64,000 nucleotides of DNA from an uncultured virus (IMG/VR IMGVR_UViG_3300042364_000900) (IMGVR_UViG_3300042364_000900), one strand, 5' to 3'. Shown: positions 24,813-63,050, numbered from the stretch's first letter. Notes: a model not told the origin generated them from the sequence alone. Program-made: numbers and translations.

Positions 24813-25196
24813 TAATCTGCGGCATCAACTGCGGCACGGCTATGTGCAGCATATTCTCAGCGAATTGACTGCACTGTTACGCTATGCATCGACTCCAGCC
24901 TCCGCCAAACCAAAGTTGCAGCAGGTGCAGAACTATCTCAAAATTCATCTGAACCACCTTCAGTACCGACAGTTCAAACAGATGGGGCTGCCGATTGGCT
25001 CAGGCATGGTGGAGAGCGCCTGCAAGTGGTTGATTACTCAACGATTTAAGGGGGTTGGGATGCGGTGGAGTGAACCTGGCTTTGATCATCTGCTCCATCT
25101 CCGGGTCGCTTGGGTCAACCAGCGCTTTGACCATCTATTTGGTGACGACCCACTATCACCTACCCTCTACTCCCCCAACCAATAGATACGCCCCCC
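24813..25196 (+). pseudogene. ISKra4/ISLre2-like DDE transposase C-terminal fragment with terminal repeat
   Basis: YRQFKQMGLPIGSGMVESACK...RFKGVGMRWS; 5' truncated at the palindrome. Confidence 0.85.
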
Positions 25197-27495: not shown

Positions 27496-27534
27496 ATAAA
27501 CTACCCCATCCCTCTACAGGGTGGGGTAGTTTAT
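27496..27534. repeat. IS605-end-derived palindrome
   Basis: ATAAACTACCCCA-TCCCTCTACAGGG-TGGGGTAGTTTAT. Confidence 0.7.
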
Positions 27535-27811
27535 AAAAGGTCAGACTCGCTTTAACGGCTTTGATGACAAGATTCTATCCCTCTATGCCAGGGGGATGAG
27601 TACCCGTGACATTGCAGATCAACTGCAAGACCTCTACGGGGTTGAGGTGTCGGCTGGGTTGATCTCGAACGTCACCGAGGCTGTGGAGGAAGAGCGCAAA
27701 GCGTGGCAGAATCGAGCGCTGGACTCGCTCTATCCCATCGTCTATTTCGATGCCATTGTGGTCAAAGTTCGACAAGATGGACGGGTTATCAACAAGGCGA
27801 TTCACCTGGCG
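27535..27811 (+). pseudogene. IS256 family transposase internal fragment
   Basis: [18 protein letters not shown]...[10 protein letters not shown]...[24 protein letters not shown]. Confidence 0.9.
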
Positions 27812-27880
27812 CGTGGGGAAGATACATTGCACTGCCTGTATTTTAGCGCGATCGCTCCTTCTAAGTATTTTGGAGGAAGA

Positions 27881-37824: not shown

Positions 37825-40800
37825 GTGCTCGTTTTGGCTGAATCAGAGCGTTACGGCTTATTTGCATCCTTCCGGTTTGATGCCGGAACCCAGGATTTTG
37901 CCGCGATGAACCGGGTGGTTGCCGGGTTGCGCGGTATTGAGGAGGCTGCCCGGACAACTGAGCAATCACTTCAATCAGCCCGGTTGGGGCAGGAGGTGCG
38001 GCGGCAGATGCGTTCTGCTGCGGGATCTACCGCGACGCTGGAGAGACCTCTCAAAACCCTGCGGCAGGAATTTAGGGCACTTCGGGCAGAGTCTCGGAAT
38101 ATTGATTTTGGGGAGTTGGGGGACACCCGGCAGTTTAAGGCCGCGACCCAACAGGTGCATCAATACGTGGATGCGCTGGAATCTTTGGGTAACCAGATTG
38201 AGCACAACACATCGTTGGAGCGTGAGTTTGCCGCTGTAGTGAAGCGCCAGCAGCGGATCGCTCAAGAGCGAATCGATATGGCGGAGCAACAGCGGAAAGC
38301 AGCTGTTGCTGCCCAACGGCTCGCGGGTGCCCAGGCGGTTCAGCAGATCGGGCAAGCAGTGGCGGCTCCCTTGGGGGCAATGGGGCGCGACAGTATCAAG
38401 ATCCTGTCGGACTTCAATGATCAGATGGCTCAGGTTAAGGCCGTGAGCGACATGACCGCCCGAGAACTCGAAACCGTTCGGAACCGGGCGAAAGAGTTGG
38501 GGGCCAGCACGCGGTTCAGTGCATCGGAGGCAGCATCAGGGTTTGTGCTGCTGGCGCAGGCCGGATATGAAGTAGAAGATCAGCTGCGGGCGATCGACGG
38601 CACCCTCAACCTGGCGTCTGCCGGAAATCTGGATCTTGCGCGAGCCACTGAAATTACAGTCAGCACGCTGGGGCAGTTCCAACTGGAAGCAGATAAAGCC
38701 TCCCACGCGGCCAACGTCCTGGCGATGGCGGCGGCGATGGGGCAGCTCGACGTTTCTGATATTGGGGAATCCCTGAAGTACGCCGGTGTCAGTGCGAAGC
38801 GGGCGGGGTTATCGCTGGAGCAGACCGCCTCCATGCTGGCGCTGCTGTCCGAGGGTGGCCTCAAGGGTGAGATGGCCGGATCGGCGCTGGGGCAAATGTT
38901 GGATGGACTGGTCGCGCCTGCCAGCACTGGCGCGGCTGCCCTGGCGAACTTGGGGGTCCAGACCACCGATGCAACCGGAAAGTTGCTGCCCTACGAAAAG
39001 ATTCTTGGCAGAACCATCGAAGCGCTGTCCAAAGTGTCGGACGAATCGGAACGGGCATCAATCCAAAACAAAATCTTTGGGGTCGTGGGCGGGAGAGCCG
39101 CTGGAATCCTGACGCCGCGCTACGAAAGAATTGCCAAGGCGACAGCCGAGATCGGGAAGTCTGCTGACGCGGGGGTCGGAGCCGCGATCAAACAGTCCCG
39201 CATCATGGAAGACACCCTTGGGGGGTCATTCCGCAACTTCAGTTCCGCAATGGAAGGGCTGAAGATCTCCCTGGTGGAACCGCTGGAGCCGATCATCAGG
39301 GCGATCATCGATACGGGTTCCGCTGTCGCAAGTTTCTTTGCGGGTCTGCCAGGGCCAATCCGGGGGGTCATCAGTGTCGGGATGGGGCTGACGTTTGTTC
39401 TGGCTGGCCTGTCGGCGGCGATCGCCACCGTTGGGATTGCGGCGTTCGGGATGCAGCAGGCGGCTGCCACGTCTTCGGTGGGGTTGCTGGCCCTCAGGAG
39501 TAGCGCGATTCCCCTGACGGGATTTTTCCAGACCGCAATGGGGGCATTTTCCGCGAGTGGATTGGCTGGTCTGCGGCGGTTCGCTGCGGATCTGACTTTA
39601 TTGCCTGGTCCACTCGGCCAGGTGATGGTCCTGATCCGAGGTGTCGGGATGGCGATCGCGACGACTCCGTTCGGAATGGCGATCGCCGGGTTTGCTGCCC
39701 TGCTGGCGCTGGCGGAAGTCCTGACCCCAGGGTTTGACCTGTTGGGCACAACCATAACGTTGCTGGTCGCGCCATTCCGTATCCTCGGGGGTCTGGCGAG
39801 TGGGGTTCTCCAGGGATTTGGTGCCGCCATCGACGAAATTTCCGGCCAGAGGCTCAGTCCAGTTGCCCAGGAATTTGCTGAATTTGCCAAAGGATTGATC
39901 GATCAAATCGATTCCCTGGAGATGTCGGCTAATTCGCTGGGGCAATCCATCGGGAAAGCGATCGCCAAGGGCCTTGCTCCGCTGTTCACCGTTCAGGCCG
40001 CGATATCCAGAGCGATTTTCTCGATTTGGCGCGGTACCATCACGGCGATTACCCATGCGTTTGATCCATTGCTGCGGTTTGCTCGATGGGTCGGGAATAT
40101 GCTGGTCAGCTCTCTGGCCGAAAACTCCCCTGGCCCTACCGCGCAGATCCGGCAGCGTTGGGACGAGACGGTGCAGCATGTCCAGGATGTCATGGGGCAA
40201 CTGGTTGGGACAGCGCAACAGGTTGGTCAAGCGGTGTGGCAGGCATTCAGTTGGGTTGCCGAGGGTGTTGCACGTCTGTTTCGGGAAGTCTTTGGCCACT
40301 TGCTGGTCAGTCGATTGGTCAAGCAAACAGATGTCTTGGGGGTCCGGATCCATAACCGGGTCTTTGGGCTTTTGAACGATATCCTGACGCTCCCGGTGGA
40401 GCTAGGTAGTCCGGCGACCATGTTTTTTGACGGCCTATTGGCTCGCCTGACCGTCGTGGAAGAGGTATTGGTGGCGATCGCTCCGGCTATGCGGATTGCC
40501 CTGACCGGGATAATTCCCGTAACGCTTCAGTCGCAGATCGTTGATCTAAACAACTCGCTCCTTAACTACATCCGAAGCCTTGGGGGAGTCGAAGGGGTTG
40601 TCATGCGTTCAGTTGGGTCGTTTGATCTACTCCTGAAGGTTGCGTCGTTTTTGTTCAAGGCGATGGCGCGATACCCCGGCCTAATGGCTGGGTTGCGCCA
40701 GGGCTTGACGGTGCTCGGCAGATTTGCTGGTTTGGCGGGACTGATTTTATCGCTTGCCGATTCCTTAAGGACGCTCTCGTTTTTGGCCCAAGGACTCCAG

Positions 40801-43800
40801 CGTGTCCTTGCGAACATGGGGGTTCCGTCCGGATGGCTCGATCCGGTGATCACGGGGCTAAACCAGACTATCCAGGCGGTCCAGAATGCCCGACAGGCAT
40901 TCGTTGGATTTGCCCGCAGTATTCTGTATGGCGATTGGGGTTCTGCGGCGCAACAGTTCAGTTCCGCCTGGACTGATTCGATTGCGCTGGTTCAGCGGAT
41001 GCTTGGCAGCCCGCTCCTGGCGGATCTACAAGTGTTCTCACCAGGGTCGATGAAATCGGTTCTGGACGATCAAAAAACTTGGATAAATTCGCTTCAGGCG
41101 GATGTGTCGCTGGCGATCGCGAATCCAATCGTGTTGTTGGCGGCGGGCATCAAGGCCGGGAAGTCACTGGGGAAAGCGATCACCACTGGTTTGGTCAAGC
41201 AGATCGATGGGGTGGCCAAGAAATTTGTTTCTGACTTCTCCACTAAGTTAAATGCAACGTCTGGGGCAGCGCTGTCAGTTGCCCTCCTGAGTCTGTTTTT
41301 CGCTCCGGCAGGCATCCCCCGGTTGATTGCGGGGTTTGCACCGGCTCTAGTGGTTGCCCTGACGAACAGCGGTGTGCTGCAGAAAGTTCAGGCATGGATA
41401 GTTAAAGGGTTCGGCGGTCTGCTGGAGAGGGTAGATCAGGCTTTCGGGCGACAGGAATGGCTCCATCGATTGGGAGAAGCGTTCGGCCTGCTTGATGTAA
41501 TCGCCAAGGGCACCGGTACCGTGATCGATACCCTGGCGAAGAGTATGTCGGTGCGGTTGGGAGCGGCGATCGCGATTGTGTCGCCAACCGTACAGTCATT
41601 GATCAATAGCCTCAAGGAGATCTATCAAATCGGTGGCGTCCCGGCAGTCCTGCAGAACCTCCAGGTGATTACTCGGCCCTTGGCGCTGGCGCTTCAGCAA
41701 ATTGCCTCATCGATCCAGCAGATGGGGACTGCCCTGGCTGGCCTTGCGGCTACATCTCCGCTGTTCCGGCAATTAATGGCAAGCGTCGGGACAGCAGCTA
41801 ATCTCCTGATGCGGATCCCGCTGGTAGAGCAGCTTGGGGCATTTGCTGTATCGATGGGGTTAGGTAGGCGATTGATGGGGATGGGGCAGTCTGCTGTTTC
41901 GACCGCGCAGCAAGGCGGCAAGGTTGCGATTAATGGAATGCAACAGGTGATCCAGTTGATGCTCTGGATCGGGCAGGGGGTCTATCAAATCGCGGAACCT
42001 GGGGGTACCTCCCTCAAGAAAGTGCCGAGTTTGCTGAGCCGCATCCTGGGGGTTGCGTCCAAGATCCTGAATCCTCTCCCGGCACTGGTGGGGTTAAGCG
42101 GAAAAGCAACCGATGCAGGTGGGATTCCACGGATCACCCCGGTCGATATTTTGTCCCAGTTCCTGCCGGAATTTCTGATTCCCGCGACCGAAAAGGCGAT
42201 CGCCGGGACAAAAGTCAGGAAGATTCTGGCAGCTCGACAACCGGGGTTTGAGGAATTTGATCCATTCAAGCAACGGGAACTGGTTGGACGGTACGTTGAG
42301 CGATTATCGAATCCGCTGGGGCTGATCAATACCCCGCTGTTTGGTCCGGTCGTGATGGCCAGCATCGAGCTGGTCGGCGGTAGCCTATTGGGCCTGATCG
42401 CTACCATCGGGTTGGCAGCGGGTGCCCTCTATGTCTTTAAGCCAGAATTAGCCAAACCGCTGGCCGGATTTTTCCAGGTCCTAGCCAAGGGGGTCGTCGG
42501 GTTAGCCTTTGTCCTGGTGCAGTTGGGCCATTCAAGCCGGGATGCTGCTGATTCGATCGATGTCCTGGGGCTAAAGCTGAAGGCTCCAGGGTGGGCGATC
42601 GCCACCAGCAAGGCCCTGAATGCCATGATTCGGGCTGTCGGGGCCGTCGCGGTTGCGTTTACCCAGGTGGTTGATTTTGCCTTGGGGATTGTCCCGACCC
42701 TCATCCGCTCCACTCTGTTGCTGGTCCCGATTGCCTTCATCGGGATAACGAAGCTCATGCTCCAGGCGATCCAGGGGGTACTGCGCCGCGTCCGCGACGA
42801 TACCAAGCGCCTGGGTGACGCGATTGTCGCGGGGGTACGGCAGGGTGATTGGTCGCAGCTCGGCAGCATCCTGAAGGAAGCGTTCATGAATGCCCTGAAC
42901 GTGACGCTAATCCCGATCGCCCGGTTAGTTAAGTACATCGCGTGGGATTTGATCATCTCGCCAATCGCTTCTGCTGTTTGGTGGGGCCTCACGACTGTCG
43001 GGAATGCGATCGGCAGCGTGCTGCTCCACCCAATTCGCACCATCAATTTCCTGGTGAACGCCATCAAAGCTATCGGGGTCGCGGTTGCGTCGATCCGGCT
43101 GGTGGGCTTGCTCCAGGCATTCACGAGGGTCAGCACCGTCGTTTATGAGTTCGAGTCAGCGGTTGGCACCACCGGGGTAGCGATCGCCGCCATCGCTACA
43201 GTTGCTTCGGTTGCACTTGACCCCATCATTGCCCTGGTGATGGGGGCGGTGGTGGCGATCGGGGTGTTGGTCCAGAGTTACCGCGACAACTTCAGTGTGC
43301 TGACTGCGGTGATCAACGGCCTCCAGTGGGCGATTAGTTCCCTGCAGGAACGCATGGCGACCCTAGTCCAGGTCTTCGCCACCCCGATCAAGCCGCTTGA
43401 TTGGTTGTTCAGCCCCATTGCCAACTTCCTGTCGGGTGCAGGTGATAAGTTTGTCCAGTGGTTCCCAACCATCCTGGCGGCATTCGTTGGGTTGCAGGTG
43501 GCTCGTAAGGGTCTGGTTGGTGGATTCGTATCGGCATTCTCGATCATCGCGAAAGCTATCCTGTCGGTTGTCTCGGCTATCTCGCAGGCGATCACCGGGA
43601 TGATCCGGCTGGGTGGAAAAACTCGGGAGTTCAGCCAGACTCTTGAGGGTGAGGTGATGATTGAGCAAGCCCGCAGGGTAGGGCGTCGGGCAGGGCAGCG
43701 GTTTGGTCTGTTCCAAAGTAACGAACCCCAGGCAATCCAGGCGGAGCGAGATCAGCAGTTTTTGGAGAAATCGGCGATCGTCCGGTTCAGAAAATCGGTC

Positions 43801-46800
43801 CAGCAGACTTTGAAAAAAACGGGTGGCTCCCTTGAGTCAATTTCGGAAGAGGTGCTCCAGCAACTCGCGGCAAAATCCCGCCTCGACACATCTGGCGTCC
43901 CAGGGGTTGTGCCGCTGCGGGAACTGGCGGCACGGGATAGCGGCCAGTTGGAAGAGATCCGAGACCTCTATCAGCAAAACATCGACAACCTCAAGACCGC
44001 CGACATGCGTGCCCAGACCGTTACGCTTGTGTCGGACAAGGTTGAGGCGTCGAACGTGGTGTCGATCACCCGTGGGACCACCCGAAAGCTTTCAACTCCA
44101 GAGGATGTCTCGTCGCTGCGGTTTGGCGCAGCAGAACTCCGGGCATTGGCGAATATGCCGGGTGGTGAGAGGCTCCGGTCGGGAGCAGGGCTATCACAGG
44201 AAGCCAGCAGGTTAGAAACAACCCTTGGGGAGGCAGCCAAGCGGCTCGAAGATATCCCTCTCTCGGTACTGAAGAATCTGGCACAGGCCGTTGGGGTCTA
44301 CCAACCTCGAACCAGCCGCGACGAAGATTACCGCTTCCTCAATACCTACAAGGATCAACTCGATAAACAGGGATTGCCAGGTGTCCAGAAGCAACTCCTG
44401 ATGCTCCAGATCCTGGCCAGGACTGACCAGATCCCAACCCCACAGGAGCTTACCAAAGGGATCGTGAGCGCGGAGGAGGCCCTGAAGGCAATCCACGGGG
44501 CACTGGAGCACCTGTACCGTGCCGCCAATGTCAAAGGCGAGGGTCAGGCGGATGCATTCAACCAGATGGCGATCGATACCTTGAGGGGGCAACTTCCGTT
44601 CCTAACGAACCAGGATGTCGCCAACGTTATCTCGCTCCTGGACAAAAACCCGAATCCAGACCGCATCATGATGGCGTTGCAGCAGGTCCTGGACACTCAG
44701 GTTGATCTGTTCCTGCAGGACAGCCCAATCTTCACGCCGGTGCAAGAAGCAGCCCAGAAGATGGAACAGGTGATCCAAACGACCGCCACCGAGGCGATCG
44801 CCCAGATGCCGAAGGGTGGGCTGTGGGCAGGGTTAGGTAAGCGATTGAAGGTCGCGGTCCATGATTTTATGGATAGCGACAGGGTTAGATCCTTTATCGA
44901 AAACCGGCAGGAGCAGAAACAGCAACGGCAAATCGCCGCCATGACGGAACAGCGGCGCATGAGGGTTGCGGCAATCCAGCGAAATTCTGGGGCATCGAAC
45001 CAGCTGGACTTCCTCCGGCGCATCGGGGCGATTCAAGACCCCACCACCCAGATACTGGAGCAACGGCAACGACCAGTCCCGTCAGCGCCATCGTCTCTAC
45101 CGCCTGCTCCGCCACCACCGCGCGAGTACCCGATGCTGCCGGATCCGTGGGAAGAAACCGAAGCTGAGCGCTTCTTCAAGGGCCTCGCGAGATTCACGCG
45201 ATCGCTTCGACGGCAGATTCCTGAGGTTTCGGAGCAAACGGTTGAATTCTTCCGAACCATCAACCGCGACGGCGAGCGATCGCTGGAGCGGGTCAATGTT
45301 GTGCCGCTGTACCGCAGGATGTTAATGGGGGCGGCAGGGGGCGCGCGTCAGGCTCTGAACCAGGCCGCAACCCTCTTCGATCGGCGTGCTGGCATTAAGC
45401 CCCCGGAGATTTTGCAAAAGCCATCAGGAGAAAGCCCCCGTATCGCTGGATTATTGCCTGCTGCCCGTGAACCTGTAGCGCCAAGTCAACCTGGTGGCAA
45501 TATTCAAAATCCTTTCAAGGAAATTGAGCGCGGCATTTGGATGTTTGGAACATTTTACTCTACCGACAAGATTAAGTCGGCATGGAAGCGTACCAGTGAT
45601 GTGATTCAGAACGGTATCTGGCCCCGATTGGTAAATTCCGCCAAGCAAGTCGGGCGAAAAATCCTGTCGTATATCGCCGAGAACTCACCCGGTCCCACGG
45701 CGCAAATCCGGCAGCGCTATCACGAAACTGCCGATTCAGTTGTGGCGGATATGCACCACATGGAAGCTGCTGCTGCCCGGACTGGTCAGAAGATTAAGCA
45801 CTCGCTGGTCGGTGGAGTCGGTAGGGCCGGGGTTGCTATTTTCGGGGCGCTAAGCGCTACCGGGTTCGCCACCCAATCGATCGCATCTTCACTCTCGACC
45901 CTGGGGATCCTGGACGAATCGACGAGTGATGCGCTGTTCAAATTCACAGAGCTATTCTCTATCGTGGGGGCAGTCGGGAGTCTGGCGGCTCCATTGTTCG
46001 GGGCGGTAGCGGCGACGTTAGGGGCACTTATCCCGATCATCACGACCGTCGGGGGGGCGATCGCAACGTTCCTGATTGGACCCATTGGGTTGGCGAGTGG
46101 CGCGATAATCGGATCCCTCCTGCTGATCAATGAAGCAACGAAGCGGCTGTTCGGCATCGACTTCATCGCACCTGTCGTCGGTCGTGTCATGATGATGGCG
46201 AACGCCATCAGACAACCGCTCGATTGGGCCGCCAACTGGATTGAAGCTCGCTGGCAACAGTTCCGCGATCGCTTTGCCCCGATCCTCGCCCCCATTGTTG
46301 AGCCAGCCCTGGAGGTAGCGCAACAGCTGATCAATGCCCTGAACCACAACCCGACCGAGGTAATCCCGCTGGCATGGGAGGAAGCGGTTCAGCGGATTAT
46401 TGGATGGATTTCGCAACTACCGGGAATCGGCGAGTGGGCCGCGAAACAGCTCAACAAGGTGATGCAACCTGGAGGAGTCTTGTCTCGCTGGGGCGCAACG
46501 GTGAAGCGCTGGTTCAGCGACCTGAAACAATCTCCCGATGGTGCCGTGATTGCCCCGACCAAGAAAGAACTTCCTCCGCTCCCGCCCCCCCCGAAGGTGA
46601 CAGCAGCGGAACAATGGGGCGACATGATGACGGCGCTACAGCGCAGTGGTGATCCATCTCAGGTCTTGACCCCTGGGTTGGATCAGGCAACTTACGGGTT
46701 CCAGTTCTTGCTGAAATCGGCACGACAGTTCGGTGAAGAATCCGGTGCTGCATTGAAGCGGCTCGACTTTGGGGCGCTCACCGGATCAGCCAAAGCGTTT

Positions 46801-49200
46801 GGCGATCGCTTCCTCATGGCCGCCAGCATCGTGGGTCAGGGCTTCGGCAGCATGACAATGGGGGCGTTGGCGTTTGGGGTAACTTCCCTCCTGAGCCTCG
46901 GCCCCGTAATCCTGACGCTGGGGGGCATCGGGTTGGCGGCCCTGGCGGTCGCGACCAACTTCCTGGGGTTACGCACCATTGTGGTGGGGGCAATTCGGGC
47001 GATCGTCGGGATTGTCCAGATCCTTGCCACAACCCTGAAGGGGGTGGTTCAGATCACTGCGGGTCTCACGAGAGTGCTGGCGGGTGCCCTCGCGATGCTG
47101 GGGGGCAACTTCGAGATGATCCATCACGGGATTGCCCAGGTGATCCAGGGGGTCAACACGATTTCGTTCGGGTTGGGTCAGGGTTTGCGAAATCTCATCG
47201 GGGGAGCCGTCCAGATGCTCCGGGGTGCATTCCAGGGATTGGGGCAGGTGGCACGCTTTACCCTGGGGGCAATCCAGCGGTCTGGAGCGTTGATCGCAAC
47301 GACATTCCGGCAGATCATTCAGTTGACCAAAGGGGTTGGCAATGCTCTCCTGAATGCCCTGACGCAGCCCCAGAAAGCTTGGAACCGATTTGTAGGGACA
47401 CTCCAGCAAGCCAAAAATGTCATCAGCAGGATCGCACAGTCCCCCCGGATTGCTGCCGATACTGTTGGGCTGGGGGCCAAAGGTAAGGCCCCCAGAATCC
47501 CGGAGAGCTACCAGATGGCTGAGTTCGATGATCGGCTCCGCAGTATCCCGTTTGTGGGGAATTATCTGGCGAATCAACAGGCCAACAACCCCGAACGTTT
47601 CAATGCACTGTCGGATGCGTTCGCCGGACTGACCGGGGTTTTGTCGGCACTATCCCCGGCGCTCGCGGCCCCATTGATGCTGTTCAGCGGATTGCTCGAT
47701 AGCGTCGTGATGCTGGCGACCTCAATCCCGATCCTTAAACCGATGATCCTTGGGTTTGCCGCCACCCTCAAGGGTATGGGGACTGCCGCCGGGTTCGCCG
47801 CCACCATGAACACGGCCCTGACGACTGCTCAAACTTTCTTGACGGGTGCCCTGACGATCGGGATGGGGGCCGCTAAAGCCTTCTGGGCTGCTATCAGCGG
47901 CCCACTCCTCCCGGTTGTCGTGGCGATCGGCCTGATTGTCGCGGGAGTCTGGGCGTTACTCCAGGCGTTCAATGTATTCGGCAGGATCGGCCAGCTCATC
48001 GGCGGAATCGTCCAGTCATTCCGGGAAGCTTGGGGCATTATTGACCGGGCATTCCGAGACGCGTTTGGCGGCATTATGATCGCGCTTAATCAACTCGGTG
48101 ATGCGATCGCGTCACCGTTTGAACCGCTGCTCCAGCTATTTGGCGCATCGGGCGGCGCTGGCCTCGCGGGCCTAATCAGCGGGACATTCCGGATAGCCCT
48201 TAACCCGATCCTCCTGGTAGCCCAAGGGATTGGGTTGGTGGTGCGGCTAATCGGTGCCGTTGTCGCCGGTGTGATCCAGGCGGGCGCATACATCACCCGG
48301 AAGCTGTTGTCACCGGTGGCGATCGCGCTCGAATGGATTATCGGTGCATTCCGGGACACCTTCGGGTTCATTGGGGAAACCCTCATGGAGGTAGGGAACT
48401 CCCTGGCGGAACCATTCGAACCGCTCCTCAATATGTTTGGAACCAGCGGCGCGGGCGGGCTGGTGGATCTGCTGGGCCGTGGAATTTCGATGCTCCTATC
48501 CCCCCTGGAGATCCTGGGGTTTGCGGTCTCGATGGTGGTGCGGCTCTTTGGAGTCGTCCTGGTGGGGGCAATCCGGCTGGTCGGGACAGTCCTGAAGCCA
48601 ATCATCTCCGTTATCCTGACGCCATTCCGGGTGATCGCAACCGTAATCCAGGGGGTTGTATGGCTGCTCCAGCAGATCCCAGCCCTCATGAGCGTGATTG
48701 CGAACGGCCTCTTGAGTGTTGTGCCCGAACCACTCCGCTGGTTGGTTGAATCCGCTCAAAAGATCACAGGGAATGGTCCCGCCGCTACGGGACCGACACC
48801 CCAGCGGTTTAGCACAGGTGGTCTCGTCACCGGGCCGTCCGGTGGCGACGTTATCCCCGCGCTCCTATCAAACCGGGAATTCGTCGTTAACCAGAACGCA
48901 ACCCGCCAGAACCTCGGGTTCCTTGAGGCGATTAATGCAGGGGTCCCGGCAGAGAAAGCCCTGGGCCTCATGCAGATCGCACCTCCCCCAATTGTCCGGC
49001 CTTCCGCCCAGGCGATCGCAGCCCCCGCCGATGCAACTCAACCCATTAGCGTTCAGGTCAACCTGACGTTCACGGGCAACATCATGGTGTCGGGCAACTC
49101 CGGGGAGGAAGTCGCATCTGAAATGATGCAACATCTCGAACCAAAGCTACAGATCGCCATCAGGGAAGCACTCCGCGATATGGTTGAACGGATGCGCTGA
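37825..49200 (+). CDS. phage tail tape measure protein (TP901 family core), 3791 aa
   Basis: FNDQMAQVKAV...AKELGASTRFSASEAA...LAQAG...LNLASAG...GLKGEMAGSAL, then long amphipathic repeats. The start may be TTG 37834 given GGAG spacing. Confidence 0.95.
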   Translation: MLVLAESERYGLFASFRFDAGTQDFAAMNRVVAGLRGIEEAARTTEQSLQSARLGQEVRRQMRSAAGSTATLERPLKTLRQEFRALRAESRNIDFGELGDTRQFKAATQQVHQYVDALESLGNQIEHNTSLEREFAAVVKRQQRIAQERIDMAEQQRKAAVAAQRLAGAQAVQQIGQAVAAPLGAMGRDSIKILSDFNDQMAQVKAVSDMTARELETVRNRAKELGASTRFSASEAASGFVLLAQAGYEVEDQLRAIDGTLNLASAGNLDLARATEITVSTLGQFQLEADKASHAANVLAMAAAMGQLDVSDIGESLKYAGVSAKRAGLSLEQTASMLALLSEGGLKGEMAGSALGQMLDGLVAPASTGAAALANLGVQTTDATGKLLPYEKILGRTIEALSKVSDESERASIQNKIFGVVGGRAAGILTPRYERIAKATAEIGKSADAGVGAAIKQSRIMEDTLGGSFRNFSSAMEGLKISLVEPLEPIIRAIIDTGSAVASFFAGLPGPIRGVISVGMGLTFVLAGLSAAIATVGIAAFGMQQAAATSSVGLLALRSSAIPLTGFFQTAMGAFSASGLAGLRRFAADLTLLPGPLGQVMVLIRGVGMAIATTPFGMAIAGFAALLALAEVLTPGFDLLGTTITLLVAPFRILGGLASGVLQGFGAAIDEISGQRLSPVAQEFAEFAKGLIDQIDSLEMSANSLGQSIGKAIAKGLAPLFTVQAAISRAIFSIWRGTITAITHAFDPLLRFARWVGNMLVSSLAENSPGPTAQIRQRWDETVQHVQDVMGQLVGTAQQVGQAVWQAFSWVAEGVARLFREVFGHLLVSRLVKQTDVLGVRIHNRVFGLLNDILTLPVELGSPATMFFDGLLARLTVVEEVLVAIAPAMRIALTGIIPVTLQSQIVDLNNSLLNYIRSLGGVEGVVMRSVGSFDLLLKVASFLFKAMARYPGLMAGLRQGLTVLGRFAGLAGLILSLADSLRTLSFLAQGLQRVLANMGVPSGWLDPVITGLNQTIQAVQNARQAFVGFARSILYGDWGSAAQQFSSAWTDSIALVQRMLGSPLLADLQVFSPGSMKSVLDDQKTWINSLQADVSLAIANPIVLLAAGIKAGKSLGKAITTGLVKQIDGVAKKFVSDFSTKLNATSGAALSVALLSLFFAPAGIPRLIAGFAPALVVALTNSGVLQKVQAWIVKGFGGLLERVDQAFGRQEWLHRLGEAFGLLDVIAKGTGTVIDTLAKSMSVRLGAAIAIVSPTVQSLINSLKEIYQIGGVPAVLQNLQVITRPLALALQQIASSIQQMGTALAGLAATSPLFRQLMASVGTAANLLMRIPLVEQLGAFAVSMGLGRRLMGMGQSAVSTAQQGGKVAINGMQQVIQLMLWIGQGVYQIAEPGGTSLKKVPSLLSRILGVASKILNPLPALVGLSGKATDAGGIPRITPVDILSQFLPEFLIPATEKAIAGTKVRKILAARQPGFEEFDPFKQRELVGRYVERLSNPLGLINTPLFGPVVMASIELVGGSLLGLIATIGLAAGALYVFKPELAKPLAGFFQVLAKGVVGLAFVLVQLGHSSRDAADSIDVLGLKLKAPGWAIATSKALNAMIRAVGAVAVAFTQVVDFALGIVPTLIRSTLLLVPIAFIGITKLMLQAIQGVLRRVRDDTKRLGDAIVAGVRQGDWSQLGSILKEAFMNALNVTLIPIARLVKYIAWDLIISPIASAVWWGLTTVGNAIGSVLLHPIRTINFLVNAIKAIGVAVASIRLVGLLQAFTRVSTVVYEFESAVGTTGVAIAAIATVASVALDPIIALVMGAVVAIGVLVQSYRDNFSVLTAVINGLQWAISSLQERMATLVQVFATPIKPLDWLFSPIANFLSGAGDKFVQWFPTILAAFVGLQVARKGLVGGFVSAFSIIAKAILSVVSAISQAITGMIRLGGKTREFSQTLEGEVMIEQARRVGRRAGQRFGLFQSNEPQAIQAERDQQFLEKSAIVRFRKSVQQTLKKTGGSLESISEEVLQQLAAKSRLDTSGVPGVVPLRELAARDSGQLEEIRDLYQQNIDNLKTADMRAQTVTLVSDKVEASNVVSITRGTTRKLSTPEDVSSLRFGAAELRALANMPGGERLRSGAGLSQEASRLETTLGEAAKRLEDIPLSVLKNLAQAVGVYQPRTSRDEDYRFLNTYKDQLDKQGLPGVQKQLLMLQILARTDQIPTPQELTKGIVSAEEALKAIHGALEHLYRAANVKGEGQADAFNQMAIDTLRGQLPFLTNQDVANVISLLDKNPNPDRIMMALQQVLDTQVDLFLQDSPIFTPVQEAAQKMEQVIQTTATEAIAQMPKGGLWAGLGKRLKVAVHDFMDSDRVRSFIENRQEQKQQRQIAAMTEQRRMRVAAIQRNSGASNQLDFLRRIGAIQDPTTQILEQRQRPVPSAPSSLPPAPPPPREYPMLPDPWEETEAERFFKGLARFTRSLRRQIPEVSEQTVEFFRTINRDGERSLERVNVVPLYRRMLMGAAGGARQALNQAATLFDRRAGIKPPEILQKPSGESPRIAGLLPAAREPVAPSQPGGNIQNPFKEIERGIWMFGTFYSTDKIKSAWKRTSDVIQNGIWPRLVNSAKQVGRKILSYIAENSPGPTAQIRQRYHETADSVVADMHHMEAAAARTGQKIKHSLVGGVGRAGVAIFGALSATGFATQSIASSLSTLGILDESTSDALFKFTELFSIVGAVGSLAAPLFGAVAATLGALIPIITTVGGAIATFLIGPIGLASGAIIGSLLLINEATKRLFGIDFIAPVVGRVMMMANAIRQPLDWAANWIEARWQQFRDRFAPILAPIVEPALEVAQQLINALNHNPTEVIPLAWEEAVQRIIGWISQLPGIGEWAAKQLNKVMQPGGVLSRWGATVKRWFSDLKQSPDGAVIAPTKKELPPLPPPPKVTAAEQWGDMMTALQRSGDPSQVLTPGLDQATYGFQFLLKSARQFGEESGAALKRLDFGALTGSAKAFGDRFLMAASIVGQGFGSMTMGALAFGVTSLLSLGPVILTLGGIGLAALAVATNFLGLRTIVVGAIRAIVGIVQILATTLKGVVQITAGLTRVLAGALAMLGGNFEMIHHGIAQVIQGVNTISFGLGQGLRNLIGGAVQMLRGAFQGLGQVARFTLGAIQRSGALIATTFRQIIQLTKGVGNALLNALTQPQKAWNRFVGTLQQAKNVISRIAQSPRIAADTVGLGAKGKAPRIPESYQMAEFDDRLRSIPFVGNYLANQQANNPERFNALSDAFAGLTGVLSALSPALAAPLMLFSGLLDSVVMLATSIPILKPMILGFAATLKGMGTAAGFAATMNTALTTAQTFLTGALTIGMGAAKAFWAAISGPLLPVVVAIGLIVAGVWALLQAFNVFGRIGQLIGGIVQSFREAWGIIDRAFRDAFGGIMIALNQLGDAIASPFEPLLQLFGASGGAGLAGLISGTFRIALNPILLVAQGIGLVVRLIGAVVAGVIQAGAYITRKLLSPVAIALEWIIGAFRDTFGFIGETLMEVGNSLAEPFEPLLNMFGTSGAGGLVDLLGRGISMLLSPLEILGFAVSMVVRLFGVVLVGAIRLVGTVLKPIISVILTPFRVIATVIQGVVWLLQQIPALMSVIANGLLSVVPEPLRWLVESAQKITGNGPAATGPTPQRFSTGGLVTGPSGGDVIPALLSNREFVVNQNATRQNLGFLEAINAGVPAEKALGLMQIAPPPIVRPSAQAIAAPADATQPISVQVNLTFTGNIMVSGNSGEEVASEMMQHLEPKLQIAIREALRDMVERMR

Positions 49201-49672
49201 CATCCTCCCCACGGCTAGAAGCCGGGGGGTTCCTGAACTGCCGTTGCCCTTTCGAGTTGCCCCTACTGAGGTCTTACACGCCATGTCCGATCCGAGCTTA
49301 CTAGAATATCCCTTGACATCTAGGTGCCCACTTCTGGATCGCTTTCCAGGCATCAATTCCCGTGTGCCCCACGGTACTCAAAGTTCTGTTTGGTTTTCGC
49401 AGTCGTTTGATCTGCTTAGCTGTTTAGAGCGTGTTCGCTACCGCTTTGCTGTTCTATTTTCCAGGCAGTCGTGTGGCACTGTTCCAGCCATATTTGTCGG
49501 GCACGTCCTGGCGGCATTTCAACCTGAAGCAACGCAATCTTAGCAGTTTTGGGTTGACCCCGACAAATAGTTGTCCGTTTCGGCTAATCGCTCCAACGGA
49601 CTTGAGAGGGGATGCTAAATCCCCATGTCTGAAGCCAGGGGCATTGCATCCCCTCTCAATCTCTCCCCTTCG
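49197..49672 (-). mobile_element. non-autonomous IS605-family element (476 bp) with omegaRNA-like right end, inserted 3' of TTAC
   Basis: Minus strand: TTAC, left-end hairpin (49602-49659), ...GAGTACCGTGGGGCACACGGGAATTGATGCCTGG..., right-end hairpin, GGATGTCAG. Confidence 0.82.
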
Positions 49673-49707
49673 GTAAGCCCTATAGACGCGATCGCATCCT
49701 GATGCTA

Positions 49708-49759
49708 AATAGTGATTACACCCCAGAATCCACAATGCTTCTGGGGTGTAATCACTATT
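49708..49759. repeat. inverted repeat with 21-bp arms
   Basis: AATAGTGATTACACCCCAGAA / TTCTGGGGTGTAATCACTATT. Confidence 0.7.
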
Positions 49760-49805
49760 ATTAATTGACGGCAATATATTGGTTTAATATAATTATATTA
49801 AGGCT

Positions 49806-50010
49806 TTGACACTCCCCACCGCATAGGCGGATGGGGATTCTTTAATCTACGAACCGACTTGCATGGGTGCAAGTAATCAAGGTTTCAAACCAGCCAGAGC
49901 ATTCCTGGCTGGTTTGAAACCTTGATTACTTGCGTCCAGAGCCGCGATGATCGGGCGGCTGATGGTTGCGAGTGCCAGAAGCCTGAGTGCGGCGTGGCCC
50001 GCCCTCGACG
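49806..50010 (-). mobile_element. IS605 right-end / omegaRNA-like remnant containing a palindrome with 29-bp arms (49869-49933)
   Basis: Minus strand AGGGCGGGCCACGCC...GCTTCTGG (tnpB tail-like) ... AAAGAATCCCC-hairpin-GTGTCAA. Confidence 0.6.
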
Positions 50011-50098
50011 GGGGGATCTTCGCTCTGGTTGCGAACAATGGGAGTCGGATCGGCGACGGGTGGAAGGTCAACGGGTTGAACAAAAAAGAAAAATGGCA

Positions 50099-50323
50099 TT
50101 AGAAGGGTGCTCCATGTAACTGCATCATTCGGCGGCTGTACGCCTCCTTTGCGATCTCGTGGAACCCTTCCTCAACATCCCGCTCCAGGCTCAACGGAAG
50201 GCTTAGTTTGGCGCAAACACGCCCATAAGCTACCGCGTCACCCCTGCAATTGATTTTTTCAGACTCGTTCAACGGTGTATCCGCCAAGCGTTCACGGTAT
50301 TTTTTTGAGTGGGTAAGTTGCAT
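50099..50323 (-). CDS. small hypothetical protein
   Basis: MQLTHSKKYRERL..., 74 aa. Confidence 0.5.
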   Translation of the reverse strand: MQLTHSKKYRERLADTPLNESEKINCRGDAVAYGRVCAKLSLPLSLERDVEEGFHEIAKEAYSRRMMQLHGAPF

Positions 50324-50439
50324 AATCAATGTGGACTCTTAGAAGGGTTCCAATCACCCCCACTGCGACGGCCTCGGAAACTGGCGCAGTGGGGGTTTTG
50401 GTTTGCGGTTAACCTCCACCGCAAGGGGCGATCGGAGTG

Positions 50440-50646
50440 CTACGAGAAATCAGACAGATCGGCCACCAGCCCCAAGGATTGCGCCGCCTCAATCAACCCC
50501 TCTTGAGAAGCAACCAGTACCGACACACCAGAATCCTTGATCGCCTGAGCCGCGATCGTCACATCCTCGAAATCAGCACCCGCAGACGGAAGATTCAGCG
50601 CTTCCGCGATCGTGCCGTCTTGAGTCCAAATGGTCGTAATAGCCAC
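50440..50646 (-). CDS. small acidic hypothetical protein
   Basis: 68 aa, GAGG RBS, 10 D/E versus 1 K. Confidence 0.65.
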   Translation of the reverse strand: MAITTIWTQDGTIAEALNLPSAGADFEDVTIAAQAIKDSGVSVLVASQEGLIEAAQSLGLVADLSDFS

Positions 50647-50698
50647 AACTTTTCCTCGCTCGATTTACCTTGGTTTGGGGCCGCCCCGTGCGCACCGA

Positions 50699-50851
50699 TT
50701 ACTCGGCGTCAAACTCGGCCAGAACCTCGTCGAGGACTTCCAGCGCCGCCAGGTAGCGGGCGCTGAATTCCTCGCGCTCCTCGTCGGTTTGGTACTGAGC
50801 ACCAATCGACTCGGCGGAAGCAAACAGAGCGGACAGGGTGGAATCGGACAT
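50699..50851 (-). CDS. small highly acidic protein (50 aa, below the ORF-track cutoff)
   Basis: GGAGG RBS; MSDSTLSALFASAESIGAQYQTDEEREEFSARYLAALEVLDEVLAEFDAE, 13 D/E versus 2 R. Confidence 0.7.
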   Translation of the reverse strand: MSDSTLSALFASAESIGAQYQTDEEREEFSARYLAALEVLDEVLAEFDAE

Positions 50852-50995
50852 GGGGTGAACCTCCAAAAAAACAACTCAACAAAACGTCCTTTCGGACTGG
50901 GATGAGTTATCTCAACAGACGGGCCTTTGTCCTCAGTCCCGGAACCCACTCCGGCGGGGAGCCTTTTTAAGGGGAGGCGCACCCCGCATGAATCT

Positions 50996-51067
50996 AAATT
51001 AACTTATTACGTTAAACCCGTCAAGAGAAAAGTTAAACTTGACTCGAAGCACTGAAAACATTAGTAT
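50996..51067. promoter_or_regulatory. back-to-back sigma70-type promoters with an inverted-repeat operator
   Basis: Leftward TTGACG-17-TAATTT (51024-50996); rightward TTGACT-17-TAGTAT (51039-51067); TTAAC-N7-GTTAA at 50999-51015. Confidence 0.7.
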
Positions 51068-51110
51068 AGACCTGTGGCACTCTACACAAGACAATCAAGG
51101 AGGTAATTCA

Positions 51111-51356
51111 GTGGTTCAAGCAGTCGTGGAAGTAATTCGCACAATCAAGGTATCTGCGCCCGAACTGGGCAAGCGCATTCGAGAGGCAAGAAAAGCCGAC
51201 GGGCGATCGGTCACCCAAATTGCTGCTGCTGCTGGGATGTCCGTCCAGAATTGGTATCGAATTGAGGACGAAAAGCAGGCATTACCAGAAGATACGCTCA
51301 GGCTAATTGAGAAGGTGTTGAGCGTTGATTTTGGCGTGAGTTTTCCGGGCCAATAA
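51111..51356 (+). CDS. XRE-family HTH transcriptional regulator
   Basis: GGAGG RBS before GTG; LGKRIREARK...SVTQIAAAAGMSVQNWYRIE. Confidence 0.88.
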   Translation: MVQAVVEVIRTIKVSAPELGKRIREARKADGRSVTQIAAAAGMSVQNWYRIEDEKQALPEDTLRLIEKVLSVDFGVSFPGQ

Positions 51357-51584
51357 AAAACGATCGCCCCCTCTCAAGACAACCACAGAACCTTGCTGCA
51401 CCAGTTTCTCGAACGCCACCCGATCGCCCGCACTAACCATCTGCACTGCCTTATCTAATGCAGCCTCAGAGGTAGCGGCGATCGCCCCTTCCACCGTGAA
51501 ATACTGCCCCGTTGGCAGCTCACTCTCAGGACGCGCTTCTACCTTCGGCTTTTGCTTCGGCCCCATTATTCCGATCTCGGTCAA
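51303..51584 (-). CDS. hypothetical protein or gene fragment downstream of the CRISPR mini-array
   Basis: Protein-like sequence, but weak start and 3' overlap with the HTH gene. Confidence 0.35.
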   Translation of the reverse strand: MTEIGIMGPKQKPKVEARPESELPTGQYFTVEGAIAATSEAALDKAVQMVSAGDRVAFEKLVQQGSVVVLRGGDRFLLARKTHAKINAQHLLN

Positions 51585-59734: not shown

Positions 59735-60619
59735 TTAAAGGCGACGAGCGATCGCCGCTTCATGAACCGATTCAGGGGTAGAGCTTGCCACGTTCGAGAT
59801 TCGCAACAGCTCGTTTACCATCGCGATCGCCTCAGTTTTGGTTACCCGAGGCGACAGTTTCAACCCATCCCGGAGATACCACTCCTTTGGAGAGAGAAGC
59901 GATAGGCCAGCATCAGTGACCCGATCGCGCCATCCATCCTCTGGTAGCACTTCGTCAATACCGTGTCCCTCGTACAACAGCTTACTGGAATCAGGCATCC
60001 AGTCCCTCATTGTTTCGGAATTATAGCGCAGGCCCTTGATGCAAACCTCCTGATACCCCAACTCACACAGTCGTGGCAGAAACGACAAATCTGAAACACC
60101 GGAGATGTAGGGATGGCACATAGGTAGGCATCTTACGCTGAACTCCTGTGCCAACTCCAGAGTGCGGAGATGCACTCGACTAGGAACACGCTCGACTGGC
60201 GGTTTGTTGCCAGTGATGGTGACAACCAGGAACAGGTTTGGGATTTGAGCCAGTTCCTGCATCAGATCTCGGTTGATGCTCCACTTGGTCACGACTGTCA
60301 GTAATTTGGCCTCTAAGTGAGTACTGTGAACCCATTCCCAAAAGAACGGGAGTAACTGTGGCATCATGCCATCTGTTACGGCGGTCCAACCAGCAAAGTC
60401 GCCTCGAAACAAACGCCAGGGAGTTGCTTTGAAACGCTGTTGAGTCTCCTGATCTTCCGTAATCCAGGGCGGTACATTCATGAAGGTGCAAGCTTTGTTG
60501 ATGCCCAACAGGCCGCGTGACCAGGCAGCGGTACGGTTGGCGTCCAGTTCGGTGACGTGGCAGTACCGACAGGCAACCGGACAGGCGGGCTTGCCTACTT
60601 CAAACCGAAATTCGCCCAT
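59735..60619 (-). CDS. radical SAM enzyme (spore-photoproduct-lyase-like fold)
   Basis: CPVACRYC (CX3CX2C), VVTK, VTITG, HPYISGVSD. Confidence 0.85.
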   Translation of the reverse strand: MGEFRFEVGKPACPVACRYCHVTELDANRTAAWSRGLLGINKACTFMNVPPWITEDQETQQRFKATPWRLFRGDFAGWTAVTDGMMPQLLPFFWEWVHSTHLEAKLLTVVTKWSINRDLMQELAQIPNLFLVVTITGNKPPVERVPSRVHLRTLELAQEFSVRCLPMCHPYISGVSDLSFLPRLCELGYQEVCIKGLRYNSETMRDWMPDSSKLLYEGHGIDEVLPEDGWRDRVTDAGLSLLSPKEWYLRDGLKLSPRVTKTEAIAMVNELLRISNVASSTPESVHEAAIARRL

Positions 60620-61172
60620 GCCGTGCCAGCTCCTTCAGTATTGCTAAGGTTACATCCTGCTGGGGTTGTTCTGCGTCAACCTCAACAAGGTGATTCAATT
60701 CCTGCCAGTTCGCCCTGTAGCCAATGTTCTGCAATAGCTCAGGCAGTCGCGATCGCTCCATTTCCATCCGGGACTTCCATTTCTCCAGGGAGTCGCCTGC
60801 GCGATCGCGGTCTACGACACGGCGCTGACTCTCTTGCTCTGAAATCTTCAGATGCACAAAAAAATTGAGAAAGCCGTCCCATGAAATGGAGTCTTTCTGA
60901 ATTCGATCACGGGGGAAGCCATCCACGATGCATCCCCCTTGCTTGGGGACAGAATCGTAAAATAGCGCGATTGCTACGTCCGGTGACAAAGGCTCCCAGT
61001 TGGATCTTTTATGTACTTCACGAATGCAATCTGCCAGTTGCCCCTCTCCATTTTTGGCAAGTTCACGGGCGCGATCGCCCAGACTTATGTGGGGAACATT
61101 CAGTATCTTGCTGAGTGCTTCCCCTTGAGTCCCCTTGCCTGCGCCAGGTAATCCCAGTAAAAAGATTCTCAT
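60600..61172 (-). CDS. nucleoside monophosphate kinase (adenylate kinase family, short LID)
   Basis: GLPGAGKGTQ P-loop, HISLGD..RE, IVDGFPR. Confidence 0.9.
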   Translation of the reverse strand: MRIFLLGLPGAGKGTQGEALSKILNVPHISLGDRARELAKNGEGQLADCIREVHKRSNWEPLSPDVAIALFYDSVPKQGGCIVDGFPRDRIQKDSISWDGFLNFFVHLKISEQESQRRVVDRDRAGDSLEKWKSRMEMERSRLPELLQNIGYRANWQELNHLVEVDAEQPQQDVTLAILKELARHGRISV

Positions 61173-61408
61173 GATTGAGCCAACCTAACGTTGCTGTACT
61201 GTGGGTCTCCGGTTACTTCCAGCCATAACCAGTCTGGTAGAACCGGAATGTCCGCCAGCTTAATTTCAGCGATCACCAGTCCATCGTGATTACCCTCAAA
61301 CTTATCGACAGTCCACAGTTGATCGCCTACTTTGATCTCGTGCCGGACTTTGCTGAGTCGATACATTGCTGTCTGTTGAAGGTCGATCGCATCGGCAATC
61401 GGAATCTC

Positions 61409-62848
61409 TTGACTTCTCCCCCGCATGAATGACGGGGGATTCCCAAGTGATGCTACGCAACGGGCTGAAGCCGCGTTGCTTCGCTTTTCCCTTGAGCTGT
61501 CACCCACAACTTAATGCGGGTGGGGGCAGTCAAAGACCCCCTACCAACTCCGCTCAGACTAAATCCAAGCATCGTCGCTACTTTACGCAGAATGTTGGCA
61601 GCGCCATTACAATCCGCGTTGATATACCAATTCTGAGCAGTCCTGAACAACCCCCGCTTCGTTCGCTTCCCAGATGACTTCCAGCTATCAGGTTTTTCAC
61701 CGAATGTCGGCAAAAAGTCATCATCCACAAACGACGCTTGAGAGGTATACGACTCCTCAGTTTCAACAAACTCTATCCCATGCTGCTCTGCTAACTGAGC
61801 AATGCGCTCTTTCAGCTTTGCAGTTGGGATCTGCACAAACTTCTGATTGGTCTTCTTGCCCAGGTTGGAGCCGTCCTTTTGCCGCTGGTTCCAGCCAAAT
61901 ACAATTCGTCCAATCCGGTTTTTGATGCAATGGTCAACGACAATCCGCGCTGCCTTGTTCACCGCGTCGCGCATCTGACGATTGCGTTTCTCGGTGAGTT
62001 GAGCAAGTCGTTTCGACCAAAAGTCCTGTGACTTGCCCTCTTTCAGCGAGGCAATCTGTTTGTTGTGCCAGCGGTTCAGCGATTTGAGGTGCAGTCCATC
62101 CACAATGAAGCTGGTTCCCACATTGCTGACGCAGGTGAGCCAATTATTCAGTCCCGAATCAATCCCCAGCACCCGCATCGGGTCTACATCAACTTGGACG
62201 GGTTTCAGGCGATAGACAAACTCAGTGTAGAAACACCCGTTGCGCGGCAGAATCCGTAGTTCTTTAATGTCCTCAAATTTGAGGTTAGAGGGCATTGGAA
62301 CGGTGAACGAATCAATCTGGAACCACGTCTTCACCAACTGCCCCAGCGGAACCCGGATCATCCCATCAATCAGTTTCAGCGCTTGTTTGGGATAGCTGAC
62401 TACTGCCAACCCTCCCTTCTTCCGGTAGTCGGGCAATTTGGGCTTCTCTGCCAACTCTCCGTCCCGCCACAGCTTTGACAATGCTCGATACGACTTGAAT
62501 GACTCGTAGACTGAGCGAAGAACTTGTTGTGCAGCTTGGGAATAGAGAACTTGGAAGTGCTTACTGGATTTGTACTCAGCATCCAGGGTGAATTTGCCAA
62601 TCCACCGCCCGGTCTTGAAATGCAGTTGACGGGCATAGTAGATGCCCTGATTAGTCAGCTTGTTCGCCTCAGAGCAGATAAACTCCACCACCGCCCTGAG
62701 TTCGTTGTTGGGGTTAAGTAAAACTTGCTGGCATCCAAACATAAGACAATTGTACCAACTATTTCATCTCACTGGGGGCTAAAGCCCCTTGAGTTGACTG
62801 TATCCCCTCGCTGAAGCGGAGGGGCTTTAGTCTGCCCACATCGCCTCA
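61409..62848 (-). mobile_element. tnpB-only (IS1341-type) IS200/IS605 element, 1440 bp, inserted 3' of TTAC and ending TCAA
   Basis: Hairpins at 62804-62824 and 61418-61438; removal restores the CYTH frame and the F-D-Y-E-I-P motif. Confidence 0.9.
61453..62742 (-). CDS. tnpB: TnpB, Zn-finger-less subfamily
   Basis: LGIDSGLNN, IVFGWN (no canonical RuvC-II Glu), TEESYTS, INADCNGAANI. Confidence 0.92.
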   Translation of the reverse strand: MFGCQQVLLNPNNELRAVVEFICSEANKLTNQGIYYARQLHFKTGRWIGKFTLDAEYKSSKHFQVLYSQAAQQVLRSVYESFKSYRALSKLWRDGELAEKPKLPDYRKKGGLAVVSYPKQALKLIDGMIRVPLGQLVKTWFQIDSFTVPMPSNLKFEDIKELRILPRNGCFYTEFVYRLKPVQVDVDPMRVLGIDSGLNNWLTCVSNVGTSFIVDGLHLKSLNRWHNKQIASLKEGKSQDFWSKRLAQLTEKRNRQMRDAVNKAARIVVDHCIKNRIGRIVFGWNQRQKDGSNLGKKTNQKFVQIPTAKLKERIAQLAEQHGIEFVETEESYTSQASFVDDDFLPTFGEKPDSWKSSGKRTKRGLFRTAQNWYINADCNGAANILRKVATMLGFSLSGVGRGSLTAPTRIKLWVTAQGKSEATRLQPVA

Positions 62849-63050
62849 GTAATCAAAGACCTGGCGAACGCCATTAACCCGATTACTAAGCACCGAAAGA
62901 TACCCAATCTCTGGAGTCAGGGAACTAACGCGAACCCGGATTTCGGGTTCGATCGATAGGTACGCCTGAGTGATATTTCTAGTTCGCTCCGGGATAGCAA
63001 AAAGCAACCAGTAATCGCTCTTGACTAAAAACTTTCGCTCAATATCCTGT

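Follow-up and report, generated by a model that had tools for sequence, protein, structure and literature searches.

IS608 inserts at the target TTAC, and the cleavage site at its right end (RE) is TCAA. PATE-like non-autonomous IS200/IS605 elements with omegaRNAs are described from Geobacillus stearothermophilus, and the sections of that report drawn on here already document the cleavage of vacant sites by TnpB and PATEs whose omegaRNAs act in trans (PMC10055086). In the freshwater cyanophage PA-SR01, an IS200/IS605 tnpB is called rare and is judged a recent transfer from cyanobacteria in the sections of its description drawn on here (PMC10286775). Herein, a related element is described in a window of 64,000 nucleotides, which is the whole stretch analysed from an uncultured virus (IMGVR_UViG_3300042364_000900) and comes from a lake-water metagenome. 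Positions 49197-49672 of the window very probably hold a PATE-type mini insertion sequence (mini-IS) that has no open reading frame (ORF), stems from a tnpB-only element, was probably acquired from a cyanobacterial host, sits silently on the stop codon of the tape-measure gene, and has kept an omegaRNA-like module.

The mini-element resembles the PATEs in having no protein gene, conserved hairpins at both the left end (LE) and the RE, an LE next to the transposon-adjacent motif (TAM), an RE-borne omegaRNA module for which TnpB and TnpA would have to be supplied in trans, and a multi-copy state. It differs from the Geobacillus PATEs, as far as the sections cited above describe them, in lying within a phage-like contig and on a stop codon. 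Its likeness to the IS608/ISDra2 type lies in the insertion 3' of TTAC without duplication, in an RE ending in TCAR, and in the co-variation of GAAT/TCAA versus GAAC/TCAG. Unlike IS608 and ISDra2, it has neither tnpA nor tnpB of its own, and its RE tail is GGATGTCAG against the family consensus GAGTGTCAA. PA-SR01, in the cited sections, carries a full tnpB ORF, whereas the present element is ORF-less and overlaps the stop of a structural gene. With 189 nt against about 136 model positions, the omegaRNA of the mini-element also exceeds the family norm by about 50 nt, and only the terminal 38 nt or so are shared with the tnpB copies of the host-like genome.

No Pfam family was found in any ORF of the 476-bp element. 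Both ends carry subterminal imperfect hairpins in place of terminal inverted repeats, as read from the sequence, from an internal inverted match of element positions 14-71, and from the RE hairpin aligned to the model. Copies without coding capacity were found at different sites. They were compared in a metagenome-assembled genome of an Elainellaceae cyanobacterium (G001, reached via locus L007), which holds one full copy with 98% identity over positions 1-476 and many partial copies at contig ends. TTAC precedes six of the seven left-end junctions in this genome and TTCC precedes one, and the insertion in the window likewise lies 3' of TTAC without target duplication. The LE start, CGAAGGGGAGAG, follows TTAC directly and is identical in the seven copies. 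At the right end, all ten junctions pass into unrelated sequence (first bases g, t, c, t, g, a, c, a, a, a); nine of the ten read ...GGATGTCAG (GTCAG) and one reads GGATGTGAG (GTGAG). In the window, the right end on the minus strand reads ...GGAACCCCCCGGCTTCTAGCCGTGGGGAGGATGTCAG and is followed by the flank CGCATCCGTTCAACC, which is antisense to the last tape-measure codons.

The metagenome contigs gave the same ends. Contig depth in runs X3 and X4 is about 20 outside 49197-49676 and climbs to 37-142 within it, and contigs with other flanks end at 49197 (two in X3 and six in X4) and at 49676/49678. In runs X5 and X6, the element is present without the phage flanks. The boundaries are fixed to the base: the limits 49197-49672 that the initial annotation had given were matched exactly by the G001 and metagenome junctions. 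Its call of an ORF-less mini-IS605 at a TTAC target was borne out by the same junctions and contigs and by the absence of a Pfam family. The tetranucleotides of the RE were further compared in 56 distinct REs of the wider family, of which 49 have GAAT 5' of the hairpin together with a terminal TCAA (three of the 56 were left unscored by the pattern and one was mis-scored). GAAC stands 5' of the hairpin in all three of the other members that end in TCAG, and the mini-element likewise pairs GAAC with TCAG.

The tape-measure ORF of 3791 amino acids ends with the codons ATG CGC TGA. Positions 49186-49200 of the plus strand read GAA CGG ATG CGC TGA, the element follows, and GTAA is found at 49673-49676. 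The C of the CGC codon is the final base of the element. The insertion would have converted GTAA at the tape-measure end to CTGA, so that ...ATG CG-G TAA became ...ATG CG-C TGA with the same arginine, the same stop position and the same protein. The swap is silent because the RE ends in TCAG, whose complement is CTGA, and the target TTAC reads GTAA on the other strand. This silent replacement is a tidy, automatic consequence of the end sequences, with no sign here of a special adaptation.

Relatives of the tape measure were compared at their C-termini. All five, from other metagenomes and with 49-63% identity, end in ...RDMVERMR* with the codons ATG CGG TGA. Since the DMVERMR* ending and the CGG codon are common to all five, the C-terminus in the window is ancestral and CGG is the ancestral arginine codon. 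The replacement was thus silent as initially proposed, because the codons of the window and the ending of the five relatives agree. The pre-insertion CGG TAA is reconstructed from the family rule of insertion 3' of TTAC without duplication. The reconstructed empty site is ...ATGCG-GTAAGCC..., with the junction ...GAACGGATGCG passing directly into GTAAGCCC. The initial annotation had also named related phages with the empty site as a check. The distant relatives keep CGG and DMVERMR*, but no close sibling or empty allele was found. A search of genome contigs and viral contigs with the tape-measure C-terminus returned no close sibling, and metagenome contigs returned only the 49-63% relatives. 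No empty-site joint was present among the aligned metagenome contigs, and tape-measure DNA was not found in the genomes G001, G002 and G004. Judging by titles and the beginnings of abstracts, the literature search gave no relevant published work on IS605 insertion at stop codons.

Whenever such an element inserts at the antisense TTAC of a G-TAA stop, the result is fixed: GTAA becomes CTGA, or TTGA in members with TCAA, and the reading frame stays the same. The window contains 286 TTAC sites, of which 32 lie outside the 58 gene-like ORFs, and eight further genes of the window end in G-TAA. Stop-overlapping sites make up about a fifth of the tolerable targets, and therefore the landing on a stop is not more than expected by chance. 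The stop swap recurs in two of 32 other family members with readable flanks, in which a long ORF on the opposite strand ends on the TGA of the RE. This is recurrence only, without enrichment, as control frames gave 1/32 and 2/32 at a threshold of at least 80 codons. In the first case, from Scytonema tolypothrichoides (L045:2625-3644, minus strand), an ORF of 339 codons that bears class-I aminoacyl-tRNA synthetase motifs ends CTT TGA; a full-length tnpB element supplies, with its right end, the T and the TGA of this housekeeping gene. We take this ORF to resemble tryptophanyl-tRNA synthetase, from motifs read by eye with no search. The second case (L061:1028-1738) is a 236-codon ORF ending GTT TGA.

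As a general point, NNG-TAA gene ends are safe landing sites for this type of transposon. Such a safe landing at G-TAA would be the most likely reason for the persistence of this copy in a densely coded phage-like genome. A further extension is that the TTAC/TCAR ends constitute a built-in stop-codon swap that provides these transposons and their omegaRNA-only derivatives with harmless harbours at essential genes and in compact phage genomes, with a phage omegaRNA and a host TnpB driving the insertion through co-infecting phages by cleavage of their IS-free alleles; this is unlikely.

The interior of the element was compared with tnpB genes. Its frame-0 translation contains ...LSTVGHTGIDAW... 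(in the fuller reading, ...RTLSTVGHTGIDAWKAI...), which resembles the ...GLSTVGHTGTYAWGD... C-termini of TnpB proteins. This matches the initial description of kept sequence like a tnpB 3' end. The 20-nt stretch that codes for STVGHTG, with one degenerate position, was scanned against genome contigs, and at least 121 stretches matched (L001-L121). The matches listed are mostly from cyanobacteria, and Chloroflexia, Selenomonas, Erysipelotrichaceae, Meiothermus/Calidithermus and others are also represented. At 23 foreign loci among the matches listed, the motif is in frame with a TnpB ORF of 336-461 amino acids and precedes its stop by 8-45 codons (mostly about 37); these 23 ORFs end with a RuvC-III-like ...DRD.NAA.NIL..GL.TVGHTG.... 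Many other motif loci have a short upstream frame, which marks ORF-less or decayed copies. The 20-nt sequence GTACCGTGGGRCACACGGGA is identical across phyla among the matches listed, including Treponema, and serves both as STVGHTG codons and as the invariant omegaRNA hairpin. This cross-phylum identity points to unusually strong dual constraint or to recent wide transfer.

A covariance model (R1) was built from 30 distinct segments that run from the motif to the right end and come from other genomes only. The consensus fold of this seed has four helices, namely the invariant 5' hairpin, a long-range stem, an inner stem and the RE hairpin, and compensatory changes occur in 11 of its 20 pairs. 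In the window, R1 matched 49385-49197 on the minus strand (49.2 bits, E 8e-12) over the full model 1-136, and the match of 189 bases ends exactly at the RE boundary. The omegaRNA-like character initially assigned to the element is upheld by this module, which lies at the tnpB 3' end/RE, has a scaffold ending at the boundary, and shares a covarying secondary structure. Fifteen R1 hits, mostly ORF-less mini-elements from six genomes and the window, were then examined for pairing. Paired cells make up 95.1% in these, against 30-51% in a slid-partner control, and double changes occur in 14 of the 20 pairs. That the omegaRNA of this particular copy is active is speculative and less probable than not.

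Several points weigh against the reading of a silently inserted mini-IS with a kept omegaRNA-like module. No close sibling phage with an empty-site allele was found, and the pre-insertion sequence is therefore reconstructed and not observed. Neither TnpB of the window looks cognate, and the mini-element and the G001 tnpB copies with the same RE have different omegaRNA bodies. The R1 score is partly circular, because the 20-nt motif that fetched the seed was taken from the window, and the pairing alignment of the 15 hits was fitted to the R1 model. The single-sequence fold is no stabler than shuffled sequences (z -0.96), no sigma-70-like promoter lies inside the element on the minus strand, and no single contig spans the whole element in X3 or X4.

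Because of this last point, the two junctions are tied together by the window's own assembly and by the equal depth of the flanks (20.5/21.4 and 19/20.8). Contigs of X3 and X4 end within the element, as they would if the contig had been joined across a repeat and the tape-measure end and the terminase region were not truly adjacent. Such an assembly artefact is extremely unlikely, for each junction is covered by contigs (47500-49234 on one side, and 49630-49832 overlapping 49807-51500 on the other), the flanks have the same depth in two runs that come from different studies, and phage genes lie on both flanks. Even a chimeric contig would give the same change of CGG-TAA to CGC-TGA from the RE-tape-measure junction and the TTAC rule, because every copy of the element must have TTAC at its left end.

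The unexceptional fold and the lack of a promoter-like site inside the element on its strand, in a window strewn with transposase fragments and solo hairpins, also suit an inert fossil that can no longer be mobilised, yields no functional RNA and persists only as a passenger. This alternative is rather unlikely in view of the signs of recent transposition, which are the 98-99% identical copies in G001 with at least nine RE flanks and seven LE flanks, and the further flanks in four metagenome runs. In addition, the two hairpins, the adherence to TTAC and the GAAC/TCAG match have all been preserved, and double changes maintain the RNA pairing in ORF-less relatives from several genera. The many different flanks carried by the G001 copies and the metagenome contigs indicate that the element was recently mobile. 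A recent acquisition from an Elainellaceae-like cyanobacterial host is probable, and we infer this source together with the order of events and the neutrality of the insertion. The phage collection, searched by blastn in distant mode, returned no record like the mini-element. The finding provides a host link for an uncultured phage and a base-resolved, omegaRNA-only mini-transposon that moved between a cyanobacterium-like and a phage-like genome.

For a mini-IS of this kind, the element would have landed by single-strand 'peel-and-paste' directly 3' of TTAC, the complement of the tape-measure G-TAA. If it is transcribed and a cognate TnpB is present, an RNA guided by the 3' flank CGCATCCGTTCAACC would cut the TTAC-flanked empty site. 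Such cutting would favour the retention or re-copying of the element, as is known for the family. The mechanism put forward by the initial annotation is the published biology of the IS200/IS605 family. Were the RNA active together with a TnpB of the host, guide RNAs carried by phages could skew inheritance among phages that infect the same cell.

The initial annotation went further and proposed a dedicated, cost-free homing or superinfection-exclusion device, in which the omegaRNA and a TnpB in trans cut the IS-free alleles of sibling phages, and the IS allele is copied in or the rival is destroyed. The geometry of guide and TAM is right for such a device, as the reconstructed empty site is TTAC followed by the flank. 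The omegaRNA module is predicted to be structurally intact, the tnpB 3' ends in G001 share the identical RE terminus, and both vacant-site cleavage and trans-acting omegaRNA PATEs are documented for the family in the cited sections (PMC10055086). A dedicated device is nevertheless very unlikely. No cognate TnpB is evident in the window, and the relatives found carry TCAC, not TTAC, with several guide mismatches, so that no natural target population was seen among them. Moreover, the element is a generic multi-copy cyanobacterial repeat with unrelated flanks, this copy bears no phage-specific mark, and a landing on a stop would be expected at roughly one in five tolerable TTAC sites. Homing or exclusion is a possible but unsupported speculation.

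The candidate partners were compared at their right ends. The tnpB-only element (61409-62848, minus strand) has GTCAA after its RE hairpin. As initially stated, it is also flanked by TTAC, which adjoins its LE (62849-62852, gtaa on the plus strand). The right end of its TnpB gene (61453-62742) shares only the terminal hairpin with R1 (61464-61409, minus strand, 13.5 bits, E 0.043). The STVGHTG motif, present as a relic in the mini-element, is absent from the C-terminus of this TnpB. A derivation of the mini-element from the 61409-62848 element by deletion was ruled out, as blastn gave no similarity. A 112-codon ORF at 61169-61507 (minus strand) starts inside the right end of the 61409-62848 element, reads into the flank and overlaps the start of an adenylate-kinase-like gene (60600-61172); it may be element read-out or a gene start displaced by the insertion.

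At the window edge, a tnpB at 1-1167 (minus strand), whose 3' end lies off the window, points away from the neighbouring gene for a Y1 transposase (1222-1647; PF01797, E 5.7e-35). Because the two genes stand back to back, the window holds an autonomous-type IS200/IS605 element (1-1720). The hairpin CCCCAGCCGCCGATGCGGTGGGG at 1689-1711, beside the Y1 gene, differs in sequence class from that of the mini-element. A full-length, 78%-identical homologue of this TnpB in G001 gave no R1 match at E<=1, and its 3' end differs. The proposal of a resident TnpB acting in trans gained no support, since the 61453-62742 gene shares the hairpin only and the homologue of the 1-1167 gene lacks an R1 match. In G001, at least four tnpB 3' ends, ...NAAWNILEKGLRLAGMSTVGHTGMNASG..., carry an omegaRNA of canonical length (66.7 bits for the complete one); the tnpB copies themselves are truncated by contig ends. 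The last 38 nt of these right ends are 100% identical to the mini-element in three copies and 92% identical in the fourth, and a matching tnpB 3' end was seen only in this cyanobacterial genome. The mini-element and the G001 tnpB copies are likely recognised by one shared transposase.

Table 1 Coordinates of the mini-element, its parts, the tape-measure gene and the dispersed hairpin in the window.
Feature	Position	Strand	Basis
Non-autonomous IS200/IS605-type element (PATE/mini-IS), 476 bp: LE, internal non-coding DNA, omegaRNA-like module, RE	49197..49672	-	G001 copies; metagenome depth and foreign flanks; no Pfam family in ORFs
Target/TAM TTAC (GTAA on plus strand); its TAA is the inferred original tape-measure stop	49673..49676	-	TTAC before LE in 6/7 G001 copies and in many full-length family members; metagenome copies alike up to 49676
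LE carrying nested hairpins, the inner of which, CCCCTGGCTTCAGACATGGGG, is similar to the RE hairpin	49560..49672	-	Sequence reading; internal inverted match of element positions 14-71
OmegaRNA-like module: 5' hairpin (CCGUG/CACGG, within relic codons STVGHTG), long-range stem, terminal RE hairpin, end GGATGTCAG	49197..49385	-	Covariance model R1, 49.2 bits, E 8e-12
CTGA, complement of RE terminal TCAG; C completes Arg CGC, TGA is the present stop	49197..49200	+	Sequence and ORF reading; GAAC/TCAG pairing
Would-be guide CGCATCCGTTCAACCATATC, 20 nt lying 3' of the RE (element strand) and antisense to the final tape-measure codons	49177..49196	-	Position only, from known omegaRNA architecture (cited sections of PMC10055086)
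Tape-measure ORF, stop supplied by the element	37825..49200	+	PF10145 PhageMin_Tail, E 7.5e-44; C-terminus DMVERMR* common to five relatives
Copies of hairpin CCCCAnC(6-12)GGTGGGG	1689, 17801, 21018, 24721, 24770, 27107, 27463, 27504, 49814		REP-like scatter of IS200/IS605 end hairpins

The gene whose stop is replaced carries the PhageMin_Tail domain in a very long ORF within a phage structural context, which identifies it as a tape measure. Its length is very long for a tailed phage, and its C-terminal region has many repeated hydrophobic segments. Genes for the small and large terminase subunits lie downstream, at 51936 and 52787, and endolysin-like peptidases and a baseplate-spike-like protein are encoded nearby. 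The phage-like region also encodes a replication initiator, a ParB-like protein, methyltransferases and a sigma factor. No tRNA was found by a tRNA scan. No Rfam family reached its gathering score in the window, and at E<=10 over 49000-50000 there were only hairpin-like chance matches to microRNA and small RNA families. The spacer beyond the mini-element contains two long near-perfect hairpins, at 49711-49760 and 49866-49930, for which Rfam gave only chance microRNA-like matches, and a strong promoter-like site, TTGACG-17-TATAAT, at 49765-49793 on the plus strand.

About 130 bp beyond the mini-element, a degenerate RE/omegaRNA remnant lies at 49806-49923 on the minus strand (R1 match 49923-49806, 21.6 bits, E 2.7e-4). 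Its hairpin (49803/07-49836) is repeated elsewhere in metagenomes with loose ends on both sides. The spacer downstream of the tape measure has therefore taken at least two hits, the remnant and the mini-element. A second ORF-less mini-element is present at 27100-27495 on the plus strand. It has an omegaRNA-like module (R1 match 27320-27495, plus strand, 47.1 bits), the STVGHTG stretch at 27327 (plus strand) and the RE end GGATGTCAA. Near-identical copies of it occur in G001 (L007 and L163-L165), and its left part resembles the hairpin region at 1650-1720.

The interval from the spike-like gene to the endolysin-like genes is crowded with the remains of mobile DNA. A Mutator/IS256-type fragment (PF00872, E 5.3e-28, profile positions 97-188 only) lies at 27530-28000 on the plus strand, directly behind the second mini-element. 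A transposase-like frame at 24800-25190, within 24763-25190 (plus strand), was recognised by eye only, with no Pfam match. The hairpin CCCCAnC(6-12)GGTGGGG occurs in nine copies in the window against 0.05 expected by shuffling. The sigma-factor ORF at 1681-2163 (minus strand) reads through the hairpin at 1689-1711 to its stop and shows a region-2 match only. As the ORF runs through the hairpin with this match alone, an IS insertion may have truncated it.

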